This document shows, one piece after another, positions 1 through 59,300 of a stretch of 64,000 bases of DNA. Within the stretch, counting starts at the first letter, position 1. Each line of letters starts with the position of its first letter. Both the position numbers and the translations under genes were made by a program. Under the pieces are notes generated by a model that worked only from the letters and a program-made list of their open reading frames with translations, did no database searches and was not told the origin of the DNA. Source of the stretch: Mobula hypostoma (taxonomy: Eukaryota); the NCBI RefSeq assembly GCF_963921235.1, contig NC_086108.1, positions 69,318,001-69,382,000 of the forward strand, written 5' to 3'.

Positions 1-690
1 ATAAACTGTCAACATTTCAGGCCAAGAGTCTTCATCTGGATTGGAAAGCAAGTGGCCAGAAGCCAGATTAAGAGGGTGGAAGGAAAGGAAGGAATACAAG
101 GTGTCAGGTGAGGGGAAGGTGGGTGGGCAAGGGTTGGTAAAGTAAGAAGCTAAGAAGTGATAGGAGGACGATGTAGAGGACTGAAGAAGAAGGAATCTAA
201 CAGGAGAGGACAGAGGACAGTGGACAGTGGAATAAAGGAAAGAAGGAGGTATGCACAGCTGAGGGAAAGAGAAGAGGAATGAGAAAAGAAAGCAGGGGAG
301 GAGATGTAATTACCGAAAGCTAGAGAAAGGATGTTTATGCAATCAGGTTGGAGAATGCTCAAACAGAATATGAGTCGCTACTCTCCAATCACAAACAAGA
401 GAAAATCTGTTGATGCTGGAAATCCAAGCAACACACACAAAATGCTGGAGGAACTCAGCAGGCCAGGCAGCATCCACGGAAAAGAGTACAGTCGATATTT
501 CGGGGTGAGACCCTTCCGCAGGACTGGAGAAAAAGTAGATTTAAAAGATAGGAGGAAGGGAGAGAGAAACACAAGGTGACAGGTGAAACCTGAAGGTGGA
601 GGGATGAAGTAAGGAGCTGGGAAGTTGATTGGTGAAAGAGATACAGGTCTGGAGAAGGGGGAATCTGATAGAAGTGGATTCTCCAGCCCT
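1..690 (-). mobile_element. Two decayed Penelope-like element 3' fragments (second probably nested in first)
   Basis: Same pLTR sequence as 8237-9250 (acacacaaaatgctggaggaactcagcaggccaggcagcatc), degenerate hammerhead motifs at ~6-40 and ~490-525, and a remnant of the GIY-YIG C-terminal coding sequence at ~310-385. Confidence 0.7.
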
Positions 691-2864: not shown

Positions 2865-4830
2865 TATGTGTAACTTTAAACCATCAATTAATGTATTACT
2901 GTGCAGGCTGGTGGTGCGGTGAATTTGTGCATTGAACATTGCATGCATTTTTGACCGATCTCAATATCATTCACACCACTTCTTCTGAGTATTAAGTGTA
3001 AAGGGATTAATTAATCCTTCTATTCCATCATAGAGCATGAAAACCTGCTCTCAGGTCATACTGGAAAATAATACTACTCATAACTCTTTCTCCTAATCTG
3101 AGTAAAGATGATTCAGGAACAGTGATGTAATATGTTAGAATGTCTTTACACACTAGCAAGTGGGTAGTTATGAAGGGAGATAAATTCCTAATGTAGTTAA
3201 ATGAAAGTGAAATGGAGCTATTTCATTTGTTGAATAACTATTTCTTAACAAGATTTATTTGAGAAGCATCTATGGGTGGGGGGGGAGAAGAATTGTCAAT
3301 GTTTTGAGTCAAGATCCTCTAACAGTCCTGATAAAGGGCCTCAACCCGTTTACAATTTATCTCCTCCAAAAGATGCTGCTCAATCTGCTAAATTCCTCCA
3401 GCTGTTTAGCTTTTTTCGCTCCAGATTCCAGCATCTGCAATCACTTGTATCTCCTATCTTTAATTAGCTGATGCATAAACACCTTCAAACTAATCTGCTG
3501 AAAAGGTGACACTTTCTAAGGTGATTAAATACAAGTTCTAGAATTGCAATTGGTAGTGAAAAGATTGCGTAGATGGTTGCAACGGGAGAACACCTTTGTC
3601 ATTCATACTGATATTCTAAAGAAACTAAGAATAAATGCCAGACATCTAAAACATACTTCTTTTACCACAGTATTGTGATGTGGGGCAGTTTGGATACACA
3701 AATACTTCAGTATTGATTGACAGCTCAATTATGAAATTAGTTACAAGGAGAAAGCAGGAGAATGAGGTTGAGAGGGAAAATAGATGAACCAGGGATGAAA
3801 GGCAGAGCGGTCAGTTGGTCAAATGGCCTAATTCTGCTCCTATGCCTTGTAGTCTTGTGGTCTTAACAACCACGTTTGATGTACCAAGTAGCAAAATAGG
3901 CAACCTCGAACTTCCGCTAATCTCATTCCAAGGATTGGAGACAAGGGCCCCCTCTATTTATTACACAGTGGCGAAAATATCTGAGCATTTCAATTTGTCT
4001 GACGTATGGCTCCAATGTCAAGACTTTCTGTACGCCTTAAAGTGTATAGTTGTGGCTGAGGTTTCAATATAGTCCATTTAACATTTTGTCTGCAATCTGA
4101 AACATTAACTTTATATATCTTCCCACAGATCAGAATCAAAATTTAGATGAATCAGAATCACAGATTTAGATGATTTTTGTCTCTTGTGGCAGCTGCACAG
4201 CACAAAGACATAAAATTACTATAAATTACAAAACTAAATAAATGATGCAAAAAAAAAAGGAATAATGAGGCAGTGTTCATGGGTTCACGGATCATTCAGA
4301 AAACTGATGGCAAAAGAAGCTGTTTCTGAATCATTGAACGTGGGTCTTCAGGCTCCTGTACTTCCTCTCCAAAGACTGTAATGAGAAGAGAGCATGTCTC
4401 ATGTCTCATGTGGTGAAGCTACTTAGTCATAGATGCCACCTACTTGAGGCAATACGTCTTGAAGATGTCTTCAATTGTGTGTAAGTTTATACTGTGGAGC
4501 CCAAATGGAAGTTCTCAAGCTGAAACCTTGTCTGTCTATTTCCCTCTGGAGATGCTGACTAACCCACTGAGTTCCTCCAGTACCTTGTGTATCGCTCCAG
4601 ATTCTATCACCTGAAGTTTCTTGTGTCCCCATCATCAAAAGCTGTGTTTCTCTATGGAGCTGTCAAAAGTGATTCCTACTTGTAGATTACATTTAAAATA
4701 AACTTGAAGACTGGTTGGTGTTTGCATTGATGGTTACTATACCTTTCACCTTCATACAGTCTGACTATGGCTGCTCTGACAATCTCAACCTGTTTTATAA
4801 AAACAGAAAATTCTGCAGAAGCTGGAAATC

Positions 4831-6290
4831 TTTATTTATTGAGATACAGGGCGAAGTAGGCCCTTTGCCCTTCCAGTCACGTCGCCCCAAGTTAATGTTT
4901 GCCTAATCACGGGACAATTTACAATCACCAATTAACCTACTAACTGATAGGTGTTTGGAATGTGGGAGAAAACGGGAGCACTTGAAGGAAACCCACGCGG
5001 TCATGGGGAGAATGTACAAACTCCATACGGGCAGCGGCTGGAACTGAATGGGGATCGCCTGTACTGTAAAGCATTGAATTGAATGGGGATCGCCTGTACT
5101 GTAAAGCATTGAACTGAATGGAGATCGCCTGTACCGTAAAGCGTTGAACTGAATGGGGATTGCCTGTACTGTAAAGCATTGAACTGAATGGGGATCCCTG
5201 TACTGTACAGCGTTGAACTGAATGGGGATCGCCTGTACCGTACAGCGTTGAACTGAATGGGGATCGCCTGTACTGTAAAGCGTTGAATTGAATGGGGATC
5301 GCCTGTACTGTAGAGCGTTGAACTAAATGGGGATCGCCTGTACTGTAAAGCGTTGAACTGAATGGGGATCGCCTGTACCGTAGAGCGTTGAACTGAATGG
5401 GGATCGCCTGTACTGTACAGCGTTGAACTGAATGGGGATCGCCTGTACCGTAGAGCGTTGAACTGAATGGGGATCGCCTGTACTGTAAAGCATTGAACTG
5501 AATGGGGAGCGCCTGTACCGTACAGCATTGAACTGAATGGGGATCGCCTGTACTGTACAGCGTTGAACTGAATGGGGATCGCCTGTACCGTAGAGTGTTG
5601 AACTGAATGGGGATCGCCTGTACTGTAAAGCATTGAATTGAATGGGGATCGCCTGTACCGTAGAGCATTGAACTGAATGGGGATCGCCTGTACTGTACAG
5701 CGTTGAACTGAATGGGGATCGCCTGTACCGTAGAGTGTTGAACTGAATGGGGATCGCCTGTACTGTAAAGCATTGAATTGAATGGGGATCGCCTGTACCG
5801 TAGAGCGTTGAACTGAATGGGGATCGCCCGTACTGTACAGCGTTGAACTGAATGGGGATCGCCTGTACTGTACAGCGTTGAACTGAATGGGGATCGCCTG
5901 TACGTAAAGCGTTGAACTGAATGGGGATCGCCTGTACGTAAAGCGTTGAACTGAATGGGGATCCCCGTACTGTACAGCTTTGAACTGAATGGGGATCGCC
6001 TGTATCGTAGAGCGTTGAACTGAATGGGGATCGCCCGTACCGTAAAGCGTTGAACTGAATGGGGATCGCCCGTACTGTACAGCGTTGAACTGAATGGGGA
6101 TCGCCTGTACTGTACAGCGTTGAACTGAATGGGGATCGCCTGTACGTAAAGCGTTGAACTGAATGGGGATCCCCGTACTGTACAGCTTTGAACTGAATGG
6201 GGATCGCCTGTAGCGTAAAGCGTTGAACTGAATGGGGATCGCCTGTACCGTACAGCTTTGTGCTAACCACTATACTACTGTGCCGCCCCC
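4831..6290 (-). mobile_element. tRNA-derived SINE (V-SINE/HE1-like) with internal tandem expansion
   Basis: Minus strand starts ggggcggcacagtagtatagtggttagc (A-box-like). Central domain tgggtttcc...tgctccc...tcccacattccaaa. Ends ctgtatctcaataaataaa at 4831. Sits inside a Penelope pLTR remnant (4801-4830 and 6291-6470). Confidence 0.8.
5041..6259. repeat. 35-bp minisatellite, ~35 copies (gaactgaatggggatcgcctgtactgtaaagcgtt)
   Basis: Directly visible head-to-tail array with point variants and a few 33-bp units. It explains the repetitive ORFs at 4940-6345. Confidence 0.97.
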
Positions 6291-8299
6291 AGTTCTTGAA
6301 CAACACGGGCAAAATGCTGGAGGAACTTATCAATTCAGGTGGCATTTATGGAGGGAAATTAAAAGTTAAGATTCCTAGCTGACTTTTCTCAGGACTGGCC
6401 TGATGAAGGTTCACAGCCCAAAACATCAACTGTTTATTCCCCTCCTTAGATGTTGCCTGACTCAACCTGTTTCAGTATGCTATACTTAGGAGGTGACAAT
6501 AGCAAATTCATATCCTTCTTATTTAAAAGTGCATACAACAGAGATTTTCCAGCATTATGGGGTTTCTAATATGGCAGTAATTGATTTTCACTCATATTAC
6601 CTTGCAGACTGCACCTCAGATTGGAGAGATGCCAAAATTAGATGGGGTTTTAGTTTTTAAATGAGCTATCTTCACCTTGCACTAGTTAGTTGTACCCTAT
6701 ATCTTCTGATTGCTATGTCTCATCAATGGCTAACTGCTTGAGGATAATGGCTACCCCCTAAACATACAGCTTCTGAAATAACAGCTGAATTTTCTAATTT
6801 CCCATTATTATGCTTATGTTCCTGTCCCACCGCTTTTCTTTAAAATGCCTTGCTAATGATCAGTATTCATGTTCCTTATCAACTGATCTGACTGAACCTG
6901 TCTCCATATAAACTTTTGTCTTACTCCTCACTCCTCCTCCCAGCTCTGCTTGGAAAACTATGAACCCTCCACCCGATCCCCTAAGGGTTGCTGACCGAAG
7001 ACATCGATTAGTTTTTTCTCCCCCACAGATGCTGTTTGACAGACTGAGTTCTTCCAGCATTTCTGTTTTTGTTTTAGATTCCAGCACCTTCAGTGTTACT
7101 TGCTTTTCATAGATTGGACTCACATGGGTTCCCACAGTTACCACTTCTGATTTAGTTGAAATAAAGGAGAATTTGTTTAATCTGAAAATGAGACCAACCA
7201 GATGTAGGTGGTGGTGAGAGGGCATAGGCTGGCCTCCACACAAGGGAGTAGTGAAGAGCTCACAGTCAATTCCATTGCAGGATGGGAGGTTAAGGGGGGG
7301 GGGGTTTAAAAAAATTGGCACTGATAAATTGTAAACAGTCAAAATGGATGGATGCAGCAGTGGTTTTACTGATGAAGGTGGGAAGAGACACTACTAGAAG
7401 AGAAAAAAATCATATGAAAGAAGAAAGAAATACGCAGTGTGAGATTAGAACTAGTGGAAACAATGTGTCAACCTAGATAATGCAGTTTTAGATCTTGGAA
7501 AAGAGCCAGAAGCAAGCTCTGCAGGGTCAGAGGCTGTCAGCACTGGAGGGGAGATCTTTAGTGAAGATTACCTCAGATTGTCTGGGAGACATTGCCCAAA
7601 TGTTCAGTAGTCAGATCATGGTCCAGGCAGAGGTAGGAGGAGGTTTTACAGAGCTGACATTCACCAGGCATGATACAGAAATCGGCTGCCAGGGTTTAGT
7701 GATAATTTTAAGGTTAGTCCTAGATTTGATGGGCGGGGGAAGCTAGTGTGAACAACAGTGTGGGAAAAATTGAGACAATCCATACTGCATCGCCTGGTAA
7801 TGCATGGGAAAGAGTCATGTGAAGAGGTATGCAATGTTGATGAAATATTGTCATAACATCAATCCGTTATGGTAGTTGTAATTGGTGGAGGTTCAGCTCT
7901 CTCTTATTTTGTTTGTTGTGTGGTTGAAGTGAGCTTTGAACCAACCAACCTCCAACGGAGTTTGTGTCTAAAGAAGTCTCAAAAATATCTCCAGGTGTTT
8001 TCCTCTTCCTTGAACTTGCCTTTCATCACTCAACAATTTCCGCTATTCAGATACTGATACTGCTGCTCTGACCCTCACCTAACAAAACCCAGCCAGCATC
8101 GCTTATTTTGCATTCTCGTCTTACCCTGGGGCTTGGTCATTCTGACGCCCATGGCTTGCCTCTCGACTTGTTTTACTGTTTACTGCTCTCCTCAGCCCCG
8201 ACTCTGCAGCGTCATAAAAAAGTCTAATCCTTTCCAGCAACACACATCAAAGTTGCTGGTGAACGCAGCAGGCCAAGCAGCATCTATAGGAAGAGGCGC

Positions 8300-8335
8300 A
8301 GTCGACGTTTCAGGCCGAGACCCTTCGTCAGGACT
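8300..8335 (-). ncRNA. Minimal type I hammerhead ribozyme motif (inverted twin of 9113-9148)
   Basis: Exact reverse complement of the 9113-9148 motif. Confidence 0.72.
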
Positions 8336-9112
8336 AACTGAAGGAAGAGTGAGTAAGGGATTTGAAAGCTGGAGGGGGAGGGGGAGATGCAAAATGATAG
8401 GAGAAGACAGGAGGGGGAGGGATAGAGCCGAGAGCTGGACGGGTGATAGGCAAAAGGGGATACGAGAGGATCATGGGACAGGAGGTACGGGAAGAAAGAT
8501 GGGGGGGGGTGACCCAGAGGATGGGCAAGAGGTATATTCAGAGGGACAGAGGGAGAAAAAGGAGAGTGAGAGAAAGAATGTGTGCATAAAAATGAGTAAC
8601 AGATGGGGTACGAGGGGGAGGTGGGGCCTAGCGGAAGTTAGAGAAGTCAATGTTCATGCCATCAGGTTGGAGGCTACCCAGACGGAATATAAGGTGTTGT
8701 TCCTCCAACCTGAGTGTGGCTTCATCTTTACAGTAGAGGAGGCCGTGGATAGACATGTCAGAATGGGAATTAGCCTCCAACCTGATGGCATGAACATTGA
8801 CTTCTCTAACTTCCGCTAGGCCCCACCTCCCCCTCGTACCCCATCTGTTACTCATTTTTATGCACACATTCTTTCTCTCACTCTCCTTTTTCTCCCTCTG
8901 TCCCTCTGAATATACCTCTTGCCCATCCTCTGGGTCACCCCCCCCTTGTCTTTCTTCCCGGACCTCCTGTCCCATGATCCTCTCGTATCCCCTTTTGCCT
9001 ATCACCTGTCCAGCTCTTGGCTCTATCCCTCCCCCTCCTGTCTCCTCCTATCATTTTGCATCTCCCCCTCCCCCTCCAGCTTTCAAATCCCTTACTCACT
9101 CTTCCTTCAGTT

Positions 9113-9148
9113 AGTCCTGACGAAGGGTCTCGGCCTGAAACGTCGACT
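9113..9148 (+). ncRNA. Minimal type I hammerhead ribozyme motif in Penelope pLTR
   Basis: AGUC-CUGACGA-AGG(GUCUCGG)CCU-GAAA-C-GUC^GACU: stem I AGUC/GACU, conserved core, short stem II, palindromic ACGU in place of a stem III hairpin. Predicted cleavage after 9144. Confidence 0.72.
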
Positions 9149-9569
9149 GCGCCTCTTCCTATAGATGCTGCTTGGCCTGCTGCGTTTACCAGCAACTTTT
9201 ATGTGTGTTGCTTGAATTTCCAGCATCTGCAGAATTCCTGTTGTTTGATTTCTAATCCTTTCCATCCGAGATTAAAAGTTATCGATAAGAAACATTGTTT
9301 ATCTATTCATAGATGTTGCCTGATCCACTGATTATTTGCAAGATTTTAGCTGGCATCTCTGATATCCGCAAGTTTTCACTTTTTCCACAAAGAGAACTTC
9401 TTAAGTGCAGCCACTGTCGACAATGTGCAAATGAAACGGTAGGAGGATGAAGTGAGGTCGGCCCAGCACCGGAAGGTGTGGGAAGTGCGCTCAAAGACGA
9501 GACCACTGTGCTTTGGGTGAAGACCCAGATGTTGATGCATCCATTTCCACCCAGGTTGCGACTTCATTG

Positions 9570-10065: not shown

Positions 10066-10185
10066 ATGGGAAATTGTTTGAAATCTCCGACGTCTGATGA
10101 CATTTCTTTGCTTCACGAGTCTTCTGACCGGGCGAGTTACGGAGATGGCACCGAAATAGACCAAGAGCCGCCGCCGCCATATCAG
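10066..10185 (+). CDS. RNF11: RNF11 coding exon 1 (MGNCLKSPTSDDISLLHESSDRASYGDGTEIDQEPPPPYQ)
   Basis: ATG at 10066 in good Kozak context (aatATGg). Translation matches the RNF11 N-terminus, with the Gly2/Cys4 acylation motif and PPPPY (PY motif). Phase-0 donor CAG|GTTTGT at 10185/10186. Confidence 0.97.
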
Positions 10186-15534: not shown

Positions 15535-15962
15535 GGAAACGAGAGAAAATCTGCAGATGCTGGAAATCTGAGCAACACACACAATGCTGGAGGAATTAAG
15601 CAGGCCAGGCACATCTATGGAAAAAAGTATAGTTGACCTCTTGGCCTAAAACCACTCAGCAGGACTGAAGGAAGAAAAGCTGAGGAGTAGATTTGAAAGG
15701 TGGGGGGAGTGGAGAGAGAACCACCAAGTGATAGGTGAAACCAGGATGGGGAGGGATGAAGTAAAGAGCTGGGAAGTTGATTGGTGAAAGAGACAAAAGG
15801 CCATGGAAGAAAAAGGGGGAAGGAGCATTAGAGGGAGACGATGGGCAGGCAGGCGATGAGGTGAGAGAGGGAAAAGAGGATGGGAAATGGAGAAGAAGGG
15901 CGATGTTGGGGGGCATTACCAGAAGTTTGAGAAATCGATGTTCATGCCATCAGGTTGGAGGC
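15535..15962 (-). mobile_element. Penelope-like 3' fragment inside decayed CR1
   Basis: pLTR end (ctgcagatgctggaaatctgagcaacacac...) through to the catcaggttggaggc GIY-YIG C-terminal sequence shared with 8640-8676. Confidence 0.75.
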
Positions 15963-19779: not shown

Positions 19780-19978
19780 AAAACACACAAAATGCTGGAG
19801 GAACTCAGCAGGCCAGGCAGCATCTGTGGGGGGAAAAGTACAGTCAACGTTTAGGGAAGGGTCTCGGCCCAAAACGTTGACTGTGCTTTTTTCTGTAGAT
19901 CCTATCTACTGAGTTTGTCTTGTATTTTGTGTGTGTGTTGCTTGGATTTCCAGCATCTTCAGATTTTCCCTTGTTTGT
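19780..19978. mobile_element. Miniature palindromic Penelope-pLTR insertion
   Basis: Truncated minus-strand pLTR joined to a plus-strand pLTR at the hammerhead region. 17-bp TSD tgaagccttatgctatc at 19763-19779 and 19979-19995. Confidence 0.85.
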
Positions 19979-33959: not shown

Positions 33960-34129
33960 GAACAGGTTCCAGTTCCTGTTTATCATCCTACTCCAAGTCA
34001 GACTCGGCTGGCCACTCAACTTACTGAAGAAGAACAGATCAGAATAGCGCAAAGAATAGGCCTCATTCAGCACCTGCCCAAAGGGGTCTATGACCCAGGA
34101 AGAGATGGATCAGAAAAGAAAATTAGAGA
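33960..34129 (+). CDS. RNF11: RNF11 coding exon 2 (EQVPVPVYHPTPSQTRLATQLTEEEQIRIAQRIGLIQHLPKGVYDPGRDGSEKKIR-E)
   Basis: Pyrimidine tract plus AG at 33958-33959, 170-nt exon, donor GA|GTAAGT at 34129/34130. Manual translation is recognisable RNF11. Not in the ORF track because it has no start codon. Confidence 0.97.
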
Positions 34130-35814
34130 GTAAGTTCAAATTATTTTCATAGTTTTATCTCTGGAAAAATTACCACTCAAGCATGCTGGAGATAAATGGG
34201 TTTTCTTCATCCATTGAGTTATTACTGCAATTACTCCTATACCAAAAGGCATAGATGGTTTTGTTTCTTTAATTCTCAGACAAAAATCAGGGCTATTGCA
34301 GGATCTCCATTTTTCATCTCTATTTTAGTGTACTATTTTTTAAAAAATACTGTTGAACCTGGTTTTGCCTGACACAACTACTACAAAACTTCAGAGCAGC
34401 CTGTTGAATGATGCTGTTCGAATTTTGGATCATCACTACCTCACCAGGTTGTATCTTTCTATATACCTATTCATTTTTTATATGTCTAGTTAATTCCCAT
34501 GTTTCTGATTAAATGCTGGTTTGCATATGTACTACTACTCACCTGTTTTCTGTTTGGGAGTTCTAACCTCCAAATTGTAATTCCTGACATAGTGGGCCCT
34601 GCTGTTTAGGTCAGCATTAGCATGGCCCACTAAGTCTTTTAAACTAATGAAGGTGCTTCCAGTTGTGTTTTTGACATGTATTTGCATCCAGCAGCAGTGA
34701 GGAACGAGCAAGTCAGGATAGTAGATGACTTCTTATGAATGGGATGCTAATTACACGGTCTTTCTGCTCTGTTCTGGATGGTGCCAAGTGTTACTGGAGC
34801 CATATTTCTTTAGAAAAGTGGAGTGTTCTCTTATGCACCTGCTTGTTTTTGTTACCATTTAATTTGTTGGTCCATCTTAGTATCTTTTCTTTGGTGATCC
34901 CCAGCATGTTGTTAATGGACAACTGAGCAACGGCAGTGTAACACACAAAATGCTGGAGGAACTGATCTGTTCCTATGAAGGGTCTCAGCACAAACATCAA
35001 CTGTTTATTCTTCTCCATTGATGTTGCTTGACCTGCTGTATTCCTCTAGTATCTTGTGTGTTAAGTCTGGATTTCCAGCATCAGCATCTGTTGTGTTCAT
35101 GCCATTGGATATTAAGGGTTGTAGTGTTAAACATCTTGTTGCAGGTGATCATTGCTGGCCACTGAATTGTTGAGCTGTGTGCAGGCCTGGGCTGCTTTGT
35201 TATTTAAGGAACTGCAGATGGAATTGGAACACTATTGTAAACTCTGCCATCGACCTTGTGATGGAGGAATGGGTATAAATGAGGCATTTGATTGTGAATG
35301 GACCCAGTCCGCTACACTGAGGAACCCCTGCAACAATATCCTGGTGCTGATATCACTGATCTTTTTTTAAAATACTGTGGTCATCATCTTTTGTGCATGA
35401 GGTGACTCTGCTTGGTTAGGTTTTCCCCTTGAAGACTGTTGGTGGTGCAAGTTTACCTTAATACCCTATCAGGTGGTACTAATTCTGGGACTTAAGCACT
35501 CTTTGTCCATAATTGACCAATGTTGTAGCCTTGGCTGGCACACAATGGCAATTTTGGAAGACAATTGGTAGCAAGTGCTGCTTGTTGCCACTGACAACAA
35601 AGACTTCCTAAGTTCTGCTTTTGATTGAGAATAGAAATACAGGAATGTGATAGGTTAGATTTTGGGGTCATAATGTACTGCAGTACATTTCCATGCTGCC
35701 TGTAGGTGTACAAGACACCATTGTATAGATGCATGGCAAGTTCTGGATCAGAGGCTATCTGTGAGTTGTTTTCTTGGGTGTGTGTTGGCTCTTGGCATCA
35801 TAATGGAGAAAGCT

Positions 35815-36624: not shown

Positions 36625-36796
36625 GTGTGTTATTTGTATGATGGACTTTGTTTATGGTGATCCAATTAGGTTTCTTCCATGCATGCATATTTATCACCTG
36701 GACTGTATAGATGACTGGCTGATGCGATCGTTCACGTGCCCATCTTGTATGGAACCAGTGGATGCAGCATTGCTTTCTTCCTATGAAACCAACTGA
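36625..36796 (+). CDS. RNF11: RNF11 coding exon 3, RING-H2 domain (CVICMMDFVYGDPIRFLPCMHIYHLDCIDDWLMRSFTCPSCMEPVDAALLSSYETN*)
   Basis: T-rich acceptor ...ttttcag at 36624. Phase-2 join gives GA|G=Glu. C3H2C3 RING, TGA ends at 36796. The three exons sum to 462 nt = 153 aa plus stop. Confidence 0.97.
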
Positions 36797-40340: not shown

Positions 40341-42065
40341 GGTTTTTCTGGATGCTTTGAAATATTGGATTTATTACAGAACTGTTTGTGCTTTAAGTAC
40401 TTTTACCTAATTGTGTTTAGAGAGTAAAGAGCCTGATGATGCTGTGGTGTTGAAGGCAAGAGTAGTAGTAAAATACTGCACAATACATTCCATTTGCAGC
40501 TGTGGCTGCCATCACTGCTTTTGGGGGGGGGGGAGGGGTGAAGGGGGGAAAGAAACGCTTGTTCATCTTTTAATGTCTAATCGTGCATTATCATTTCAAA
40601 TAATTTATTCAAAAACATTGCACATTCCAAAAAGTAGATTCATGTATAATTTATGGGCTTGCTTAAGGCAGCAGGTATTAAAATCTGCAATAGTAAAAAG
40701 TAATTTTTGAATGGTGTTTTATTTTCATAAAGTGCCCCTTAGCTGCAATGTTAATTTTTTACAAGATGTTCCATTATTAAATATTTTGTGCACATCGAAT
40801 TGTTGGAGTACCATGTAGATAGACCTCAAGAATAACACTTGGAAATTTCCAGTTAAACCCTCAGTTGCCACTCAGTCTAATACTTGTAAGTATCCAGATT
40901 TAGATAAGATAGTTCAGGTTTTGAATAGACCCAGGCACTGAAGATATCTCAAAGGACCATTGTTTTGCTATCATGCGGGTTACAATTTCCAGTTCAGTGT
41001 AATCTCTGCTATTGGTAATTTAGAAGTCTAGAGATATAATTGACTGGAATCAATTATATAATTGCATGTAATATTCCCAAGATCAAGGTCTTATGACCAG
41101 ATCCCAGTTAATTGTTGTTCAGATATATCATTTATATAAAGTATTGTGTGTATAGGAAATAGTCAGTTATCAGAATGCACATTATAATATGCTGCTAATA
41201 TGAAGAGGTACTGGTAGACTAGGTTTTCCCAGGGAAAACTGCACAATTTAGTAGTAATTAAGATTCAGATTGCATAACTTTGACAGCATGCTACCATTAT
41301 ACTTCTGTACAGCGTGTTTTTTAATTTAGATTCTCTTTCGCTTAATGTTTCTCTCAATTTGGTAGCCTGTTCCAAACCTCTTTAAACTTTGACCTTGAAT
41401 CACAAACAGAATAAACTGTCAGTCAATATCGCATCTGTTCATGTGAAGTCTTTCACGCAGAATAGCTCCACCAATATGCAAGATTTCTGAAGTACAAATT
41501 AATCTACAGTATAACCTTAGGTGGCTAACAAACAGAAAACAAAGGGTTGGATCAAATGGGTCTATATCATTTAACTGTGACTAGTGATGTATCAGAGGGA
41601 TTGGTGCTTGAGCTCTACATCTGCAATCATAGTCAGTGGTTTGGGTAAGGTGGCCAAATGCAACATTCTCAAGTTTGCATTGCAGATTAAAATTATTAAT
41701 ACAGTTCTAAAGGGACTTTGTGTGATATATTTGTGTTCCTTTTAAAAAGATATAAGATTAATTGTACTGAGTTTTAAAAAGATTCACCAGGTTGGTTCCT
41801 GTGATGGTGGGTCTTTTGAATGAGGAGGGGTTGGGTAGGCTGATAGAAAAATGAAAGGCAGCTTCATGAAGTATAAAGCTTTACAGAGTAGGACAATTCC
41901 CCTGGCAAAGGAATCCAGAACTAGAGCTCTCAATCTCAAAATTAAGGGTTAAGATAGTGGGGATTGAGAGGGGGTAACTACTCAGTTTGCTATTCTCTGC
42001 ACTGGAGGACTGTGGAGACACTTTCTTTGATGGTGTTCAAAAAAGAGAATGAAGGAAAAGATGTA

Positions 42066-43596
42066 CATTGGTGCTAGAAAAACCCCGTAGAATTCCTTCT
42101 ATTTCTGCATAAATGACCTAAAATGTGATCAGACCTTCACACAAGTCCTAAAACTAGAGAACACAATTAAATAAGACAAAAATTATACTTGCTCATTTAT
42201 TTATTGAGGAAAAAATGATCCAATATTACATGTATTGGAATAAGTATGTGAACCTCTGCGGTAATACCTTCTCCAGAAGCTCTCTGAAGTCAGGTGTTCC
42301 AATTAATGAGATAAGATTGAGGTGTGAGTTGTAGAGGTGCTGTGCCCAATTATTTATTTTTATTTTTTAAAAAAGACACACAGGTATAAAGACAGGGCTT
42401 GCTGTTCTCAAGAAAGATCTGTTTGTGTGCACCATGCCTCGATCAAAACAAGTTTCAGAGAACCTTAGGAGAAGAATTGTAGAGATGCATGAAACTGGAA
42501 AGGGCTGCAAAAGCAGTTCTAAAGACCTGAGTTTTCATCAGTCCACAGTAAGAGAAATTGTCTACAAATGGAGGAGATTCAGTACTGTGGCTACTCTCCC
42601 TGGGAGTGGGCATCCTGCAAAGATCACAACAAGAGCACAACATGCAATGCTGAAGGAGGTGAAAAAGAATTTAAGAGCAACAGTAGAAATCTCTTGAACT
42701 TGCTGAAGTCTCTGTTCATTTGTCCACTATAAGAAAAACACTGAATAAGAATGTTGTTCATGGAGGGACACCATGGAGGAAACCACCGCTCTCCAAATGA
42801 AACATTGCTGCATATCTGAAGTTTGCAGAAGACCACCTAGATGTTCCATAGCGCTTCTGGGACAACGTTCTGTGGACAGATGGTACAAAATTTGGCAGAA
42901 ATGTGCATTGCTATATTTGGAGGGAAAAGGGCACTGCACACCACCACCAAAACCTCATCTCAACTGTGAAGCATGGTGGAAGGAGCATCATGGTTTGGGG
43001 CTGCTTTGCTGCGTCAAGGCCTGTGCAGCTTGCAGTCGTTGAGGGAACAATGAATTCAAAATTGTAATGACACTTTGCAGGAGAATATCAAGGCTTAATA
43101 GAAGTTGAACAATGCAACAAGACAAAGAACCGAAAGAGGAGTAAATCAACAACAAAATTGTTTAAAAAGAAGAGAATTTGTGTTTTGGAGTGACCAAGTC
43201 CTGACTGTAATCCTATGGAAATATGAAGGATGTGAAGCAAGCAGTTCATGCAAGGAAGCTCCCAAACATCCCACAGTTGAACCAGTTTTGTAAGGAGAAA
43301 TGGCCTAAGATTCCTCCAAGCTGATGTGCAGAACTGATCAGCAGTTAGTAGAAACATTTGGTTTAAGTTGTTGCTGTAAAAGGGGATCACACTGAAAGCA
43401 GAGGTTCACATACTTTTTCCAACAAATACTTATTGGATAATTTTTCTCAATGAACAAGTATAATTTTTTTGTGTTGGGTATTTAATTGGGTTCCTTTTAA
43501 TCTAATTTTAGGACGTATGAAGATCTGATCACATTTCAGGTCATATGCAGAAATAGAGAAAATTCTACAGGGTTTACAAACTTTCTTGCACCTCTG
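42066..43596 (+). mobile_element. Tc1/mariner DNA transposon, complete ends, defective transposase
   Basis: TA|cattggtgctagaaa...tttcttgcacctctg termini with long TIRs. MPRSKQVSENLRRRIVEMHETGKG... paired-like HTH from 42434. Frameshifted downstream. Same family as 751-2864. Confidence 0.92.
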
Positions 43597-44447
43597 CATG
43601 TGGCCACTTTGCAGTAGGCTACCTAATTTGAATCTTCTGAAAGAAAATCCAATATGGTTCAGCAAATATGACTCATCTTTAAAAATCTTGATCATTGTGG
43701 GATGTTGCAAACCTGAGCAATATAGCCCATTAAGAGAAAGACTACATGTGGCTGTGAATATCAGTTTTGTTTTATTTCTTGATTTATTTTTAACAGAATC
43801 TGTATTCATGGCAAGTCATTTGAATTACTATTGAGTATTGCTATTATCCTGATGAAGATTCTCCCACAATGTTGTTAGTTAGAGAAACTAGATTAAAACC
43901 CAGTGACAAAGAAGACTCAGTGATGCATTTTCAAATCAGGGTGATGTAAAACTTGGAGAACTTTGGCTATGGAAAGTTTTGGGAGATGTTGCAGCAGGAG
44001 CCTGGCTAGGTAAATTGAGTGATTTTGTACTGTAGATGGTACAGGCAGCAGCCTGAATGAATGGATGCTTAATGTAGTGATGCAAGGATTATCAATAAAG
44101 GTGGCTGTTTCATCTTGGATGCTGCTGACACTGAATGTGCAGTTGGAGCTACACTTCTCTTACCTGGATAGCAATCAGAATCAGCTTTGTCACTAACGTG
44201 TAAGATCTGTTTTGTGGACAGCAGCACCGTGCAATACATTTTTTAAAAAACTGTTGCAATAAGAAATAAACTAAATGTCAAAAGTGCTAAATAGTGAGGT
44301 AGTGTTCATGGCTTCATAGACTGCTCAGAAATCTTCATGGACATGAAGAAGCTGTTCCTAGATTGTTGAGTGTGCGTCTTCAGATTCCTGTACCACCTCC
44401 CTTATGGCAGTAATGAGAGGGTGTGTCCTGGATGGTGAAGGTCCCTA

Positions 44448-45132
44448 ACACCACACACACAATGCTGGTGGAACACAGCAGGCCAGACAGCATCTATAGG
44501 AAGAAACACAGTCGCCGTTTCAGACCGAGACCCTTCATCAGGACTAACTGAAAGAAGAGATAGTAAGAGATTTGAAAGTGAAATGATAGGAGAAGACAGG
44601 AGGGGGAGGGATAGAGCTAAGAGCTGGAAAGTTGATTGGTAAAAGGGATACAAGTCTGGAGAAGGGAGAGGATCAGGGGATGGGAGGCCTAGGGAGAAAG
44701 AAAGGGGGACGGTAGCACCAGAGGAAGATGCAGAACAGGCAAGGAGTTATTGTGAGAGGGACAGAGAGAAAAAAGGAAAAAATAATAAATAAATAAGGGT
44801 TGAGGTAAGAAGGAGAGGAAGGGCATTAACAGAAGTTAGAGAAGTCAATGTTCATGCCATCAGGTTGGAGGCTACCCAGATAGAATATAAGGTGTTCCTC
44901 CAAACTGAGTGTGGCTTCATCTTGACAGTAGAGAAGGCCGTGGATAGACATATCAGAATGGGAATGGGATGTGGAATTAAAATATGTGGCCACTGGGAGA
45001 TCTTGCTTTCTCTGGCAGACAGAGCGTAGGTGTTCAGCGAAACGGTCTCCCAGTCTGTGTCATTGTCTCACCAATATATAGTAGGCCGCACTGGGAGCAC
45101 CGGACACAGTATATCATTCCAGCTGACTCTCG
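44448..45132 (-). mobile_element. Penelope-like element 3' portion with GIY-YIG endonuclease motif
   Basis: Minus strand 45129-45061 translates ESAGMIYCVRCSQCGLLYIGETM (GIY...YIG). It continues to the same C-terminus and pLTR as 8237-8770. Hammerhead-like motif at 44510-44545. Confidence 0.88.
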
Positions 45133-55030: not shown

Positions 55031-56444
55031 CACTTATCCTGGTAATGAAACTGTTTTCTTTTCTCCCCATTCCATAACTAACCACCTACAACACTCAGAG
55101 TTCTATGCTCTGTGACCTCTAGCAGGAAGGTAAATGCTTGGGAAAACAGTGAAAGGCAAAACCAAAGTAGTAGGTGTGATGGGTTGGATAGTTTGAAGTG
55201 TGTATATTTTAATGGAAGGAGTATTATGGGTAAAAGGTGATGAACTTAGAGCATGGGTCAGTACGTGGAACTACGATGTTGTGGCCATCATGGAAACTTG
55301 GATGGGAGAGGGGCAGGAATGAGTGATTAATGTACCAGGTTTTTGAAATTTTAGAAAAGATGAAGAAGGTTAAAAAAAAAGTGGTGGGGAGGAGGGATAA
55401 TCAGGGAAGATATCACCGCTGCACTCAGGGAGGGTTCAGACAGTGAGTCCATTTCAGAATCAGAATTGGGTTTATTATCACTGGCTTGTGTCGTGAAATT
55501 GGTTAACTTAGCAGCAGCAGTTCAATGCAATACATAACCTAGAAGAAAAAAATAAAATAATAATAATAAATAAATTACAGAATAGAACTCAGGTATAGGA
55601 AGGGTGCAATCACACTGAAGGGATTTTTATTACAGATCCCACTATAGCCACCAGGACTTCAAGGAACAGATATGTAAACAGATTAAGGAAATGTGGATTT
55701 CAACTTCCTTAATGTAAACTGGGACCACTTTAGTGCAAGGAGTTTAGATGGACTAGAATTTGTTAAGCATATCCTGGAAAGTTTCTTAAATCAATATGTG
55801 GACCATCCAGTGAGAGGAGGGCCCTACTGGACCTGGTGTTGGGTAATGAACCTGGCCAGGTGACAAACCTTTCAGAAGGTGAACAGTTAGGGAACAGTGA
55901 TCACAACTCCTTAACTATCAGGATAGCTATATATAAGGATAGGTATGGTCCTTGCAGGAGAGTTTTAAATTGGAGAAGGGCAAATTACGAGGGCATTAGG
56001 CAGGAACTAAGAAGAGTTAATTGGGAATATCTTTTCTCCTGCAAGCCAATCTCAGACACGTGGAGGGTATTTAAAGATCAATTGCACGGAGTACAGGAAA
56101 GGTATGTTCTGGTTTGAAAGATGGATGGGGATGGAAAGATAAAGGAACCTTGGGTCTCCAGAGAGGTGATGAATTTAGGCAAGAAGGAAAAGTATGTAAA
56201 GCTTCAGATGTTTAGATCAAATGAAGCATATGGTGAGTATAAAGAAGCCAGAAAAGAACTAAAGAAAGGAATTAGAAAAGCCAGGATGGGCCATGAAACG
56301 TCATTGACAAGTAGAATCAAGGTGAATCAGAAGGCATACTATACATACATCAAGTGCGAGAGGATAACTAGAGAGAGGGTGGAACTACTGAAGGATAAAG
56401 GGTGCAATACTTGCTTGGATTCAGAGAACATGATTGGGGTACTT

Positions 56445-58152
56445 AAGGATGCATACAGCTCCTCTCCCCTCCCCCCCCCCCATTGGGAAGGTCAGATCAC
56501 AACCTGGTGCATCTAAAACCCCACATGAGTCATCTGTTATCGGCCCCCAACCAACACATATTCCACTCTCCCCTCCTACCCCTCCTCACAGTCCCCCACC
56601 CTGCTCTCATGACTATACCCCTTCCCCACACAAAACCACCACAGTGGACTTCACAGCTGAACAGGTGAAAAGATAGCTGAAACATCTCAACCCAAGCAAG
56701 GCTGCAGGACCGGATGGTGTCTGTACCAGGGTGCTCAAAGCCTGTGCCCTTCGGTTATGTGGAGTAATTCACCATGTCTTCAACCTGAGCCTGAGGCTCT
56801 GGAGGGTTCCTGTGCTGTGGAAGACGTCCTGCCTCGTCCCTGCGCCCCAGCGGCCTCTGAGTACAGACCGGTGGCATTGACCTCCCACATCATGAAGACC
56901 TGGGAGAGACTTGATCTGGAGCTGCTCTGGCCTATGGTCAGGCCACACTTAGATCCCCTCCAGTTCGCCTACCAGCCCCGACTAGGAGTTGAGGATGCCA
57001 TTGTCTACCTGCTGAACCGTGTCTACGCCCACCTGGACAAGCCAGCCAGCACTGTGAGGGTCATGTTTTTTGACTTCTCCAGTGCGTTCAACACCATCCA
57101 CCCTGCTCTGCTGGGGGAGAAGCTGACAGCAATGCAGGTGGATGCTTCCCTGGTATCATGGATTCTTGATTACCTGACTGGCAGACCACAGTACGTGTGC
57201 TTGCAACACTGTGTGTCCGACAGAGTGATCAGCAGCACTGGGACGCCACAGGGGACTGTCTTGTCTCCCTTTCTCATCACCATTTACACCTCGGACTTCA
57301 ACTACTGCACAGAGTCTTGTCATCTTCGGAAGTTTTTGGATAACTCTGCCATAGTTGGATGCATCAGCAAGGGAGATGAGGCTGAGTACAGGGCTACAGT
57401 AGGAAACTTTGTCACACGGTGTGAGCAGAATTATCTGCAGCTTAATGTGAAAAAGACTAAGGAGCTGGTGGTAGACCTGAGGACAGCTAAGGCACCAGTG
57501 ACCCCTGTTTCCATCCAAGGGGTCAGTGTGGACATGGTGGAGGATTACAAATACCTGAGGATACGAATTGACCATAAACTGGACTGGTCTACAAGAAGGG
57601 TCAGAGCTGTCTCTATTTCCTGAGGAGACTGAGGTCCTCTAATGTCTGTCGGACATTGCTGAGGATGTTCTACGAGTCTCTGGTGGCCAGTGTTATTGTG
57701 TTTGCTGTTGTGTGCTGGGGCAGCAGGCTGAGGGTAGCAGACACCAACAGAATCAACAAACTCATTCGTAAGGCCAGTGATGTTGTGGGGATGGAACTGG
57801 ACTCTCTGACTGTGGTGTCTGAAAAAAGGCTGCTGTCCAAGTTGCATGCCATCTTGGACAATGTCTCCCATCCACTACATAATGTATTGGGCGGGCACAG
57901 GAGTACATTCAGCCAGAGACTCATTCCACCGAGATGCAACACAGAGTGTCATAGGAAGTCATTCCTGCCTGTGGCCATTAAACTTCACAACTCCTCCCTT
58001 GGTGGGTCAGACACCCTGAGCCAAGAGGCTGGTCCTGGACTTATTTTCTGGCATAATTTACATATTACTATTTAATTATTTATGGTGCAACTGTAACGAA
58101 AACCAATTTCCCCTGGGATCAATAAAGTATGACTATGACGATGACTATGACT
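56445..58152 (+). mobile_element. Rex1/Babar LINE (internally deleted) inserted in CR1
   Basis: APE end GRSDHNLVHL, RT ORF 56757-57623 (LDPLQFAYQP...FFDFSSAFNTI...PQGTVLSPFL), AATAAA and (tatgac)n tail at ~58121-58152. Confidence 0.88.
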
Positions 58153-59205: not shown

Positions 59206-59300
59206 AGTCCTGACGAAGGGTCTCGGCCTGAAACGTTGACTTTACCTCTTCCTAGAGATGCTGCCTGGCCTGCTGCATTCACCAGCAACTTTGATGTGTG
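59206..59300 (+). mobile_element. 95-bp Penelope pLTR fragment beginning at a hammerhead motif (59206-59241)
   Basis: agtcCTGACGAagggtctcggcctGAAAcGTTgact followed by pLTR sequence near-identical to 9149-9208. It interrupts CR1 ORF2. Confidence 0.8.

Follow-up and report, generated by a model that had tools for sequence, protein, structure and literature searches.

The window, by which we mean the whole stretch of 64,000 nucleotides that was analysed, contains a gene for a RING-H2 E3 ligase with three coding exons, which we take to be RNF11 or RNF11-like, and an inverted insertion that carries the motif of interest and ends approximately 800 bases before the start codon of this gene. A CpG-rich stretch, likely a promoter, adjoins that end of the insertion near the start codon. 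The domain scan covered 150 of the 159 long frames of the window, and the coding exons of this one host gene were mapped. Elsewhere the window holds a tandem array of a 35-bp unit in more than 30 copies (5057-6263), two Tc1/Sleeping Beauty-like DNA transposons with inverted ends and matches to HTH_SB and DDE_3 (744-2870, a copy interrupted by a LINE piece, and 42064-43602), and, at 56118-57620 on the plus strand, the remains of a LINE reverse transcriptase (RT), with a frame ahead of them that gives a weak RusA-like hit (E 2e-4). The features on which the analysis turns are as follows.

8..43, minus strand: degenerate motif of an older subfamily (edit-distance search)
490..525, minus strand: degenerate motif within an older pLTR copy at 392-638 (edit-distance search and blastn)
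3325..3350, plus strand: degenerate motif, 5' half alone
6396..6431, plus strand: degenerate motif without the 5' strand of helix I
8223..8236, plus strand: left copy of a 14-bp target-site duplication
8237..8770, minus strand: left arm of the insertion, a 5'-truncated 3' end of the element (end of the endonuclease ORF, pLTR, and short tail)
8300..8335, minus strand: motif inside the left inverted arm, identical to that in the right arm
8771..9247, plus strand: right arm, with the last ORF codons (stop at 8817-8819), the pLTR with the motif, and a long tail
9100..9114, plus strand: pyrimidine tract and AG directly before helix I, 3' splice site-like and predicted to block the core
9113..9148, plus strand: minimal type I hammerhead motif of 36 bases, the core and helix layout being read from the sequence
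9113-9116/9145-9148, plus strand: helix I of this focal motif, 4 bp
9117-9123, plus strand: CUGACGA core strand of the focal motif
9124, plus strand: unpaired A after the core strand
9125-9128/9133-9136, plus strand: helix II, four pairs with a 4-nt loop
9137-9140, plus strand: GAAA of the focal motif
9140-9143, plus strand: palindrome ACGU, the loopless helix III
9144, plus strand: C17 of the focal motif in standard numbering
9149..9247, plus strand: tail downstream of the cut site
9251..9264, plus strand: right copy of the 14-bp target-site duplication, after 3 extra bases
10066-10185, 33960-34129, and 36625-36796, plus strand: the three coding exons of the RING-H2 E3 ligase gene
15631..15666, minus strand: degenerate motif, lying antisense in host gene intron 1
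19856..19882 (search match 19847-19882), plus strand: truncated motif that lacks CUGA, lying sense in host gene intron 1 and joined to an inverted arm
34967..35002, plus strand: degenerate motif with a broken core, sense in intron 2 of the host gene
44449..45129, minus strand: older, broken element copy with GIY-YIG remains, its motif at 44510-44545
59206..59300, plus strand: short copy starting at motif base 1, with a GUU triplet

The original prediction had named four copies of the motif, and all were found at the coordinates and on the strands given for them, with every letter in agreement. Those at 9113-9148 (+) and 8300-8335 (-) are identical in a letter-for-letter comparison; that at 59206-59241 (+) is one base off the 9113 motif, a change that makes the triplet GUU and leaves the core intact; and that at 44510-44545 (-) has three differences, at N7, at one helix II base, and in the triplet, which is GGC. 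The core C3 U4 G5 A6 N7 G8 A9 / G12 A13 A14 A15.1 / U16.1 H17, as defined in PMC3088659, is present in the 8300, 9113, and 59206 copies and is broken at U16.1 in the 44510 copy, which had been put forward as a negative control for cleavage and is unsuitable as a clean one because its helix II change adds a second defect. Helix I does bracket the core as described, with 4 bp closing both ends and 94% of helix I cells paired among 22 copies; the reduction of helix III to the loopless palindrome ACGU is plain at 9140-9143, and the expected cut 3' of 9144 agrees with the standard numbering. Seven further copies had been listed as degenerate, six of which were recovered at edit distances of 7 to 12, the seventh, at approximately 3325-3350, consisting of a 5' half that was missed at distance 12. 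Chance hits per shuffled window numbered 0 at distances of up to 9, 0.15 at up to 10, and 3.6 at up to 12, and the copy at distance 12 therefore rests on flank homology (blastn) and not on the motif match. Motifs had also been placed in the introns of host genes; three copies do lie between the RING-H2 coding exons, but all are degenerate, and the intact copies lie outside. A hammerhead descriptor gave 90 matches in 1.48 Mb of fetched DNA, partly selected as element bearing, and 0 in five shuffles. No Rfam hammerhead model matched the whole window at E 5 or the 101-base stretch 9080-9180 at E 10, and an Rfam match to MIR408 at 8591-8857 was rejected as the fold-back of the inverted insertion arms.

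Helix II does not open with an A-U pair, as had first been proposed. Among the traits given for minimal hammerhead ribozymes (min-HHRs) by Cervera and De la Pena (2014; PMC4209133) are a base left unpaired between positions 9 and 10.1 and, following it, the pair G10.1-C11.1, and in this register A9124 is the unpaired base and the next pair is G-C or G·U. The first pair of helix II is formed in 20 of 22 copies in the G register and in 12 of 22 in the A-U register, with energies of -2.3 against -1.1 (-3.9 against -0.4 for copies with C), and the A-U register was rejected for its higher energy and smaller number of paired copies. Of the 90 young-family copies, 73 have U and 17 have C at position 11.1, the 9113 copy being among the U (G·U) copies, and G10.1-C11.1 is kept in older copies and in other subfamilies; representatives of the latter (L209:2423-2458, L095:4715-4750, L158:6807-6842, and L228:1931-1966) have UCCR or UUCG in loop II and mostly C11.1. 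Copies with U11.1 lie nearer the full-length reference, which itself has U (median divergence, 3.3%; n = 30), than do those with C11.1 (7.7%; n = 11), and the youngest lineage has thus likely fixed G·U at 10.1-11.1. The folding model suggests that this replacement of G-C weakens helix II by 1.6 kcal/mol; since even U-U at 10.1-11.1 can support cleavage (PMC3088659), G·U leaves activity possible. A literature search for a G10.1/U11.1 hammerhead variant found nothing. The change from G-C to G·U in the youngest lineage constitutes a natural test of the level of activity that the element needs.

The two identical copies had been taken for independent members of a dispersed family; they are instead carried by opposite-strand arms of a single insertion. 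The sequences at 8232-8676 and 8771-9216 are inverted arms, 96 to 100% complementary, and the target-site duplication brackets both, so that we are dealing with one insertion whose arms stand head-to-head. The motifs in the two arms point apart, and a single transcript therefore holds one motif and its antisense; when 8300 and 9113 were folded in one transcript, all 36 bases paired with the other arm with a probability of 1.0. A cis dimer of the two was rejected on the grounds of opposite strands and predicted complete fold-back, and these copies are predicted to block each other instead of cutting as a pair.

Related loci that extend the ORF end in the 8771-9247 arm reveal a single ORF comprising RT plus, at its C terminus, a GIY-YIG domain. 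The motif lies 293 nt downstream of the stop of an ORF with RT, a CX4CxxC linker, and GIY-YIG; the RVT_1 match has an E value of 3.6e-5, under the curated cutoff, and the GIY-YIG (PF01541) matches have E values of 8e-5 and 6e-4, one of them scoring under the curated cutoff. A CX2-5CxxC linker between RT and the endonuclease (EN) and CCHH in EN, both read in the translations of L063 and L064, are features described in PMC8557442 and are common to Neptune and Nematis. The element is a young EN+ Penelope-like element, and we call it Neptune-like on the basis of its RT, Cys linker, and GIY-YIG, the linker occurring also in Nematis. The expectation that this genome would hold very many such motifs was amply borne out: a 31-base motif pattern had 26,971 + 27,029 = 54,000 matches in the 3.48-Gb genome, with 0 for the reversed control, and a 33-base tail pattern had 78,402. 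A search with an RT piece gave 88,085 first-look candidates, 150 of which were scored, and the 20 copies with the longest open frames among those listed were fetched for full anatomy. Three of these 20 (L062, L065, and L073) have a second same-strand motif 3,511 to 3,514 nt upstream and hence carry the motif in both pLTRs; one is a longer tandem, one is a partial tandem, three have an inverted upstream motif, and the rest are truncated. L066 is a head-to-tail tandem of two elements that are 99.5% identical and share the same internal inversion. The 3' ends of the family cluster approximately 65 to 70 and 100 bases past the motif.

An intact core is kept in 60 of 70 young copies that span the motif. 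Conservation was counted after the removal of subfamily-diagnostic sites, and non-CpG changes in 59 such copies amounted to 3/588 in the core, 15/1,588 in the motif, and 184/12,455 in the flanks; compared with the flanks, this gives a p value of 0.05 for the core and of 0.11, which is not significant, for the whole motif, and CpG sites decay within the motif as well. Subfamilies were defined by clustering 215 copies on their upstream flanks, clustering on the downstream flanks having merged them and proved uninformative. This yielded five real subfamilies (89, 12, 8, 6+3, and 3 copies), with 72 copies unclustered and 22 in fold-back clusters; clusters 40, 31, and 37 were not counted as subfamilies, being fold-back junctions of the main family. 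Diagnostic positions number 1 of 36 in the motif against 31 of 330 upstream. Between the five subfamilies the motif is 83 to 94% identical (81% with the decayed three-copy cluster), a conservation that is inflated by the picking of subfamily copies for their motif likeness, and the 30 bases upstream are 47 to 70% identical (random, 49%). In the well-preserved subfamilies, none of the eleven core bases and neither helix has been lost, and differences fall mainly at N7, loop II, 11.1, and H17. Independent support for a conserved motif island is provided by contigs of four runs from four studies, none on record as RNA, whose loose ends gather at the edges of the motif, before 9113 in three runs and after 9148-9149 in four. 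No RNA run is listed as carrying 8771-9247. A covariation check on 22 chosen copies of one genome found 0 two-sided changes in either helix, and the covariation score was no higher than that of shuffles, 274 of 500 of which reached it; the helices are nearly invariant, and the test consequently has little power.

The best fold of the 36-mer keeps helices I and II and pairs the core with the cleavage triplet, the core being predicted to be locked through GACG/CGUC pairing, and its energy is ordinary (z, -0.37). The pyrimidine tract and AG at helix I recur in all five subfamilies (for example, at 9100-9114 in the window and in L209, L228, L127, and L232). With 20 or 60 upstream bases, the predicted fold pairs the tract with the core, and the probability of helices I and II is 0, against approximately 0.7 in an RNA beginning at the motif. 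An intron of Drosophila virilis Penelope ends at helix I (PMC4209133); no spliced genomic copies were found among 30 junctions just after either AG of the present family (19 of 130 and 11 of 116 matches). A double-hammerhead dimer was assigned -9.5 kcal/mol (-14.7 with C11.1), whereas the lowest-energy dimer fold came to -28.3 kcal/mol, in energy models that omit tertiary contacts. Unfavourable dimer folding of this kind would agree with the low, dimer-only activity of the Schistosoma min-HHR (PMC4209133) and with the behavior of the Anolis Poseidon hammerhead, which cuts only with protein and is dispensable for insertion in vitro (PMC11167929). Of 70 young copies anchored on the tail, in loci of 7 to 10 kb, 46 have an intact core in register, and within 3.6 kb of these a same-strand intact partner was found for 3 and an opposite-strand partner for 18; cis dimers are thus likely limited to full-length and tandem elements.

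With 54,000 near-identical motifs and approximately 78,000 tail matches, 5' ends can be placed at single-base resolution, and their positions are informative on whether Penelope hammerheads cut in cells and on which RNA is copied. An alignment was obtained for 99 of the 100 tail matches that come first on one contig: 37 start within 15 bases of motif base 1, 5 start at +29 to +35, 41 start more than 100 bases upstream, and 3 start exactly at the cut site. Copies start mostly at the front edge of the motif, and uncut RNA is therefore likely the usual template for copying. Genome-wide patterns demanding that homology start at a set offset, +32 being the first base after the cut, gave 541 starts at +32, a number 2 to 6 times higher than those at six neighboring offsets (194 at +27, 90 at +30, 87 at +31, 201 at +33, 179 at +34, and 288 at +36). 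Junctions were inspected for the first 30 matches each at +31, +32, and +33 and the first 20 each at +34 and +36. The 30 cut-site junctions included 11 microhomology joints of 3 to 5 nt when classified by script and 14 after hand correction, and 4 or 5 were slips or small changes within a whole motif. Ends free of microhomology, scaled by script, came to 49 at +31, 270 (169 to 372) at +32, 141 at +33, 90 at +34, and 202 (132 to 254) at +36; the hand-moving of four +32 junctions lowers 270 to approximately 200, the other offsets having been hand corrected to a lesser degree. About half of the cut-site starts are accounted for by microhomology or artefact, and for this reason the peak, which is suggestive of cleavage, is not decisive and was not accepted as proof of cleavage in vivo. 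Microhomology joints are themselves compatible with a cut template, since a cDNA ending at the cut site would seek such joints. The cut site is also the center of a 6-bp palindrome, and its first bases occur again in helix I, in the core, and in helix II. Three loci (L246, L247, and L248) share one fold-back junction, in which an inverted arm to motif base 1 is followed by an extra A and by a direct arm from the cut site. In L334 and in +32 matches preceded by CCT, most of the motif is skipped between short end repeats, as if a hairpin had been bypassed; of the 100 matches at +32 that were listed first, 13 are such motif-skipping copies.

We conclude, with a probability of approximately 0.7, that the 36 bases are a min-HHR in the pLTR of a young and abundant Neptune-like Penelope element, likely a weak ribozyme that would cut only through an ACGU-paired dimer, probably helped by the element's protein, and that the copies in the window, which are truncated, are predicted not to cut. 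Core, helices, and pLTR position all agree with the initial identification of a minimal type I hammerhead of a Penelope-like element with a dimer-type helix III, and the initial reservation about its activity was likewise well placed. The motif appears to conform to the published min-HHR definition (PMC4209133) and so belongs to a class already known; it is in itself ordinary, and what it offers is the scale of the family. In a full-length or tandem transcript, two motifs would exchange helix I strands, their palindromes would pair, and the resulting double hammerhead would cut after C17 at low yield. Read-through RNA would hide the core in an upstream hairpin, and most reverse transcription would start in the tail of uncut RNA, giving copies that keep the whole motif and stop near its front edge.

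It is extremely improbable that the likeness to a hammerhead arose by chance within a high-copy repeat: the ordinary folding energy of the 36-mer, the lack of an Rfam hammerhead match, and the lack of covariation in the helices would all suit such an origin, but the published class is matched in the full core, in both helices, in the unpaired base and palindrome, and in the location within the pLTR, the descriptor finds nothing in shuffles, and the motif forms a conserved island across subfamilies. The motif could be a hammerhead by descent that no longer cuts here and has been retained for a structural or regulatory role in the pLTR, such as that of a promoter, splice acceptor, or protein-binding site. 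This we consider unlikely, given that eleven core bases and both helices are retained in the well-preserved subfamilies, with differences mainly at free positions, and that starts at the cut site are in raw excess; it would, nevertheless, accommodate the G·U at 10.1-11.1 in the youngest and most numerous copies, the predicted locking of the core, whether through GACG/CGUC pairing or through the tract upstream, the retention of an uncut motif in almost all copies, and the splice-acceptor-like tract at helix I of five subfamilies, and Naiad elements have spread without canonical hammerheads (PMC8557442).

A further, doubtful proposition is that the ribozyme cuts in living cells, with a small share of copies templated by the cut 3' fragment and with scattered copies cutting in trans. 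The excess of starts at the first postcut base over the six neighboring offsets, the sharp left edge at the scissile bond, and the three tail-anchored copies that begin there speak for it. Against this must be set the microhomology joints and slips among the cut-site junctions, after whose removal some 200 to 270 starts compare with approximately 200 at +36 and 140 at +33, the palindrome centered on the cut site, which favors fold-backs by itself, and the scarcity of same-strand intact partners within 3.6 kb (3 of 46 young intact copies, against 18 with antisense ones). We entertain only tentatively the combined proposal that approximately 1% of copies start at the scissile bond through reverse transcription of cut 3' RNA and that the pyrimidine tract serves as a switch, hiding the core in read-through RNA and freeing it in RNA that starts at the front edge, the whole amounting to a fossil record of germ line cutting. 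If true, this record would be evidence of Penelope hammerheads cutting in vivo, which is absent from the literature searched, and would accompany a G·U variant that has spread to tens of thousands of copies.

With the min-HHRs of metazoan Penelope-like pLTRs (PMC4209133), the motif that we interpret as a weak, dimer-dependent ribozyme shares the type I core and 4-bp helix I, a single base left unpaired after position 9 and before 10.1, and a palindromic 15.2-16.2 without loop 3; one motif per pLTR, mostly in solo copies from truncated elements, and opposite-strand pairs 100 to 700 bp apart are also common to both. Helix II, in contrast, has 4 bp here and 7 to 8 bp in the Schistosoma min-HHR, and the youngest lineage has G·U in place of the G-C trait. 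There are 54,000 near-identical matches here against approximately 4,000 in coelacanth and 9,000 in Xenopus, counted by a different method, and one low-diversity family dominates, unlike the situation in the genomes of that study. Min-HHRs were reported there in fish Neptune elements; cartilaginous fish, the group of the present host, are absent from its text and the two supplementary files searched, and a literature search for Penelope hammerheads in cartilaginous fish found nothing. The insertion at 8237-9247 resembles the inverted 5'-truncated Penelope-like insertions with a one-sided tail of 30 to 40 bp described by Craig et al. (2021; PMC8557442) in its head-to-head arms and target-site duplication, and its tail is approximately 35 bp longer on one side, so that there is no substantive difference.

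Non-LTR retrozymes, the hammerheads of which have been reported in one cartilaginous fish (bioRxiv 10.64898/2026.07.22.740005), likewise carry type I hammerheads related to those of Penelope-like pLTRs, but they are noncoding head-to-tail tandem units, whereas the present copies are fragments of a coding element that lie dispersed or inverted; identity with retrozymes was rejected because the copies are so arranged and are tied to ORF remains. In comparison with Poseidon of Anolis carolinensis (Frangieh et al., 2024; PMC11167929), the clade is Neptune-like by its Cys linker, and the first long-ORF ATG lies approximately 170 nt past the motif start, in contrast to its position inside helix II in the lizard element. 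Both systems share a pLTR hammerhead upstream of two reverse transcription starts, which give a short and a long tail, and uncut RNA as the main template, likely so in the present element.
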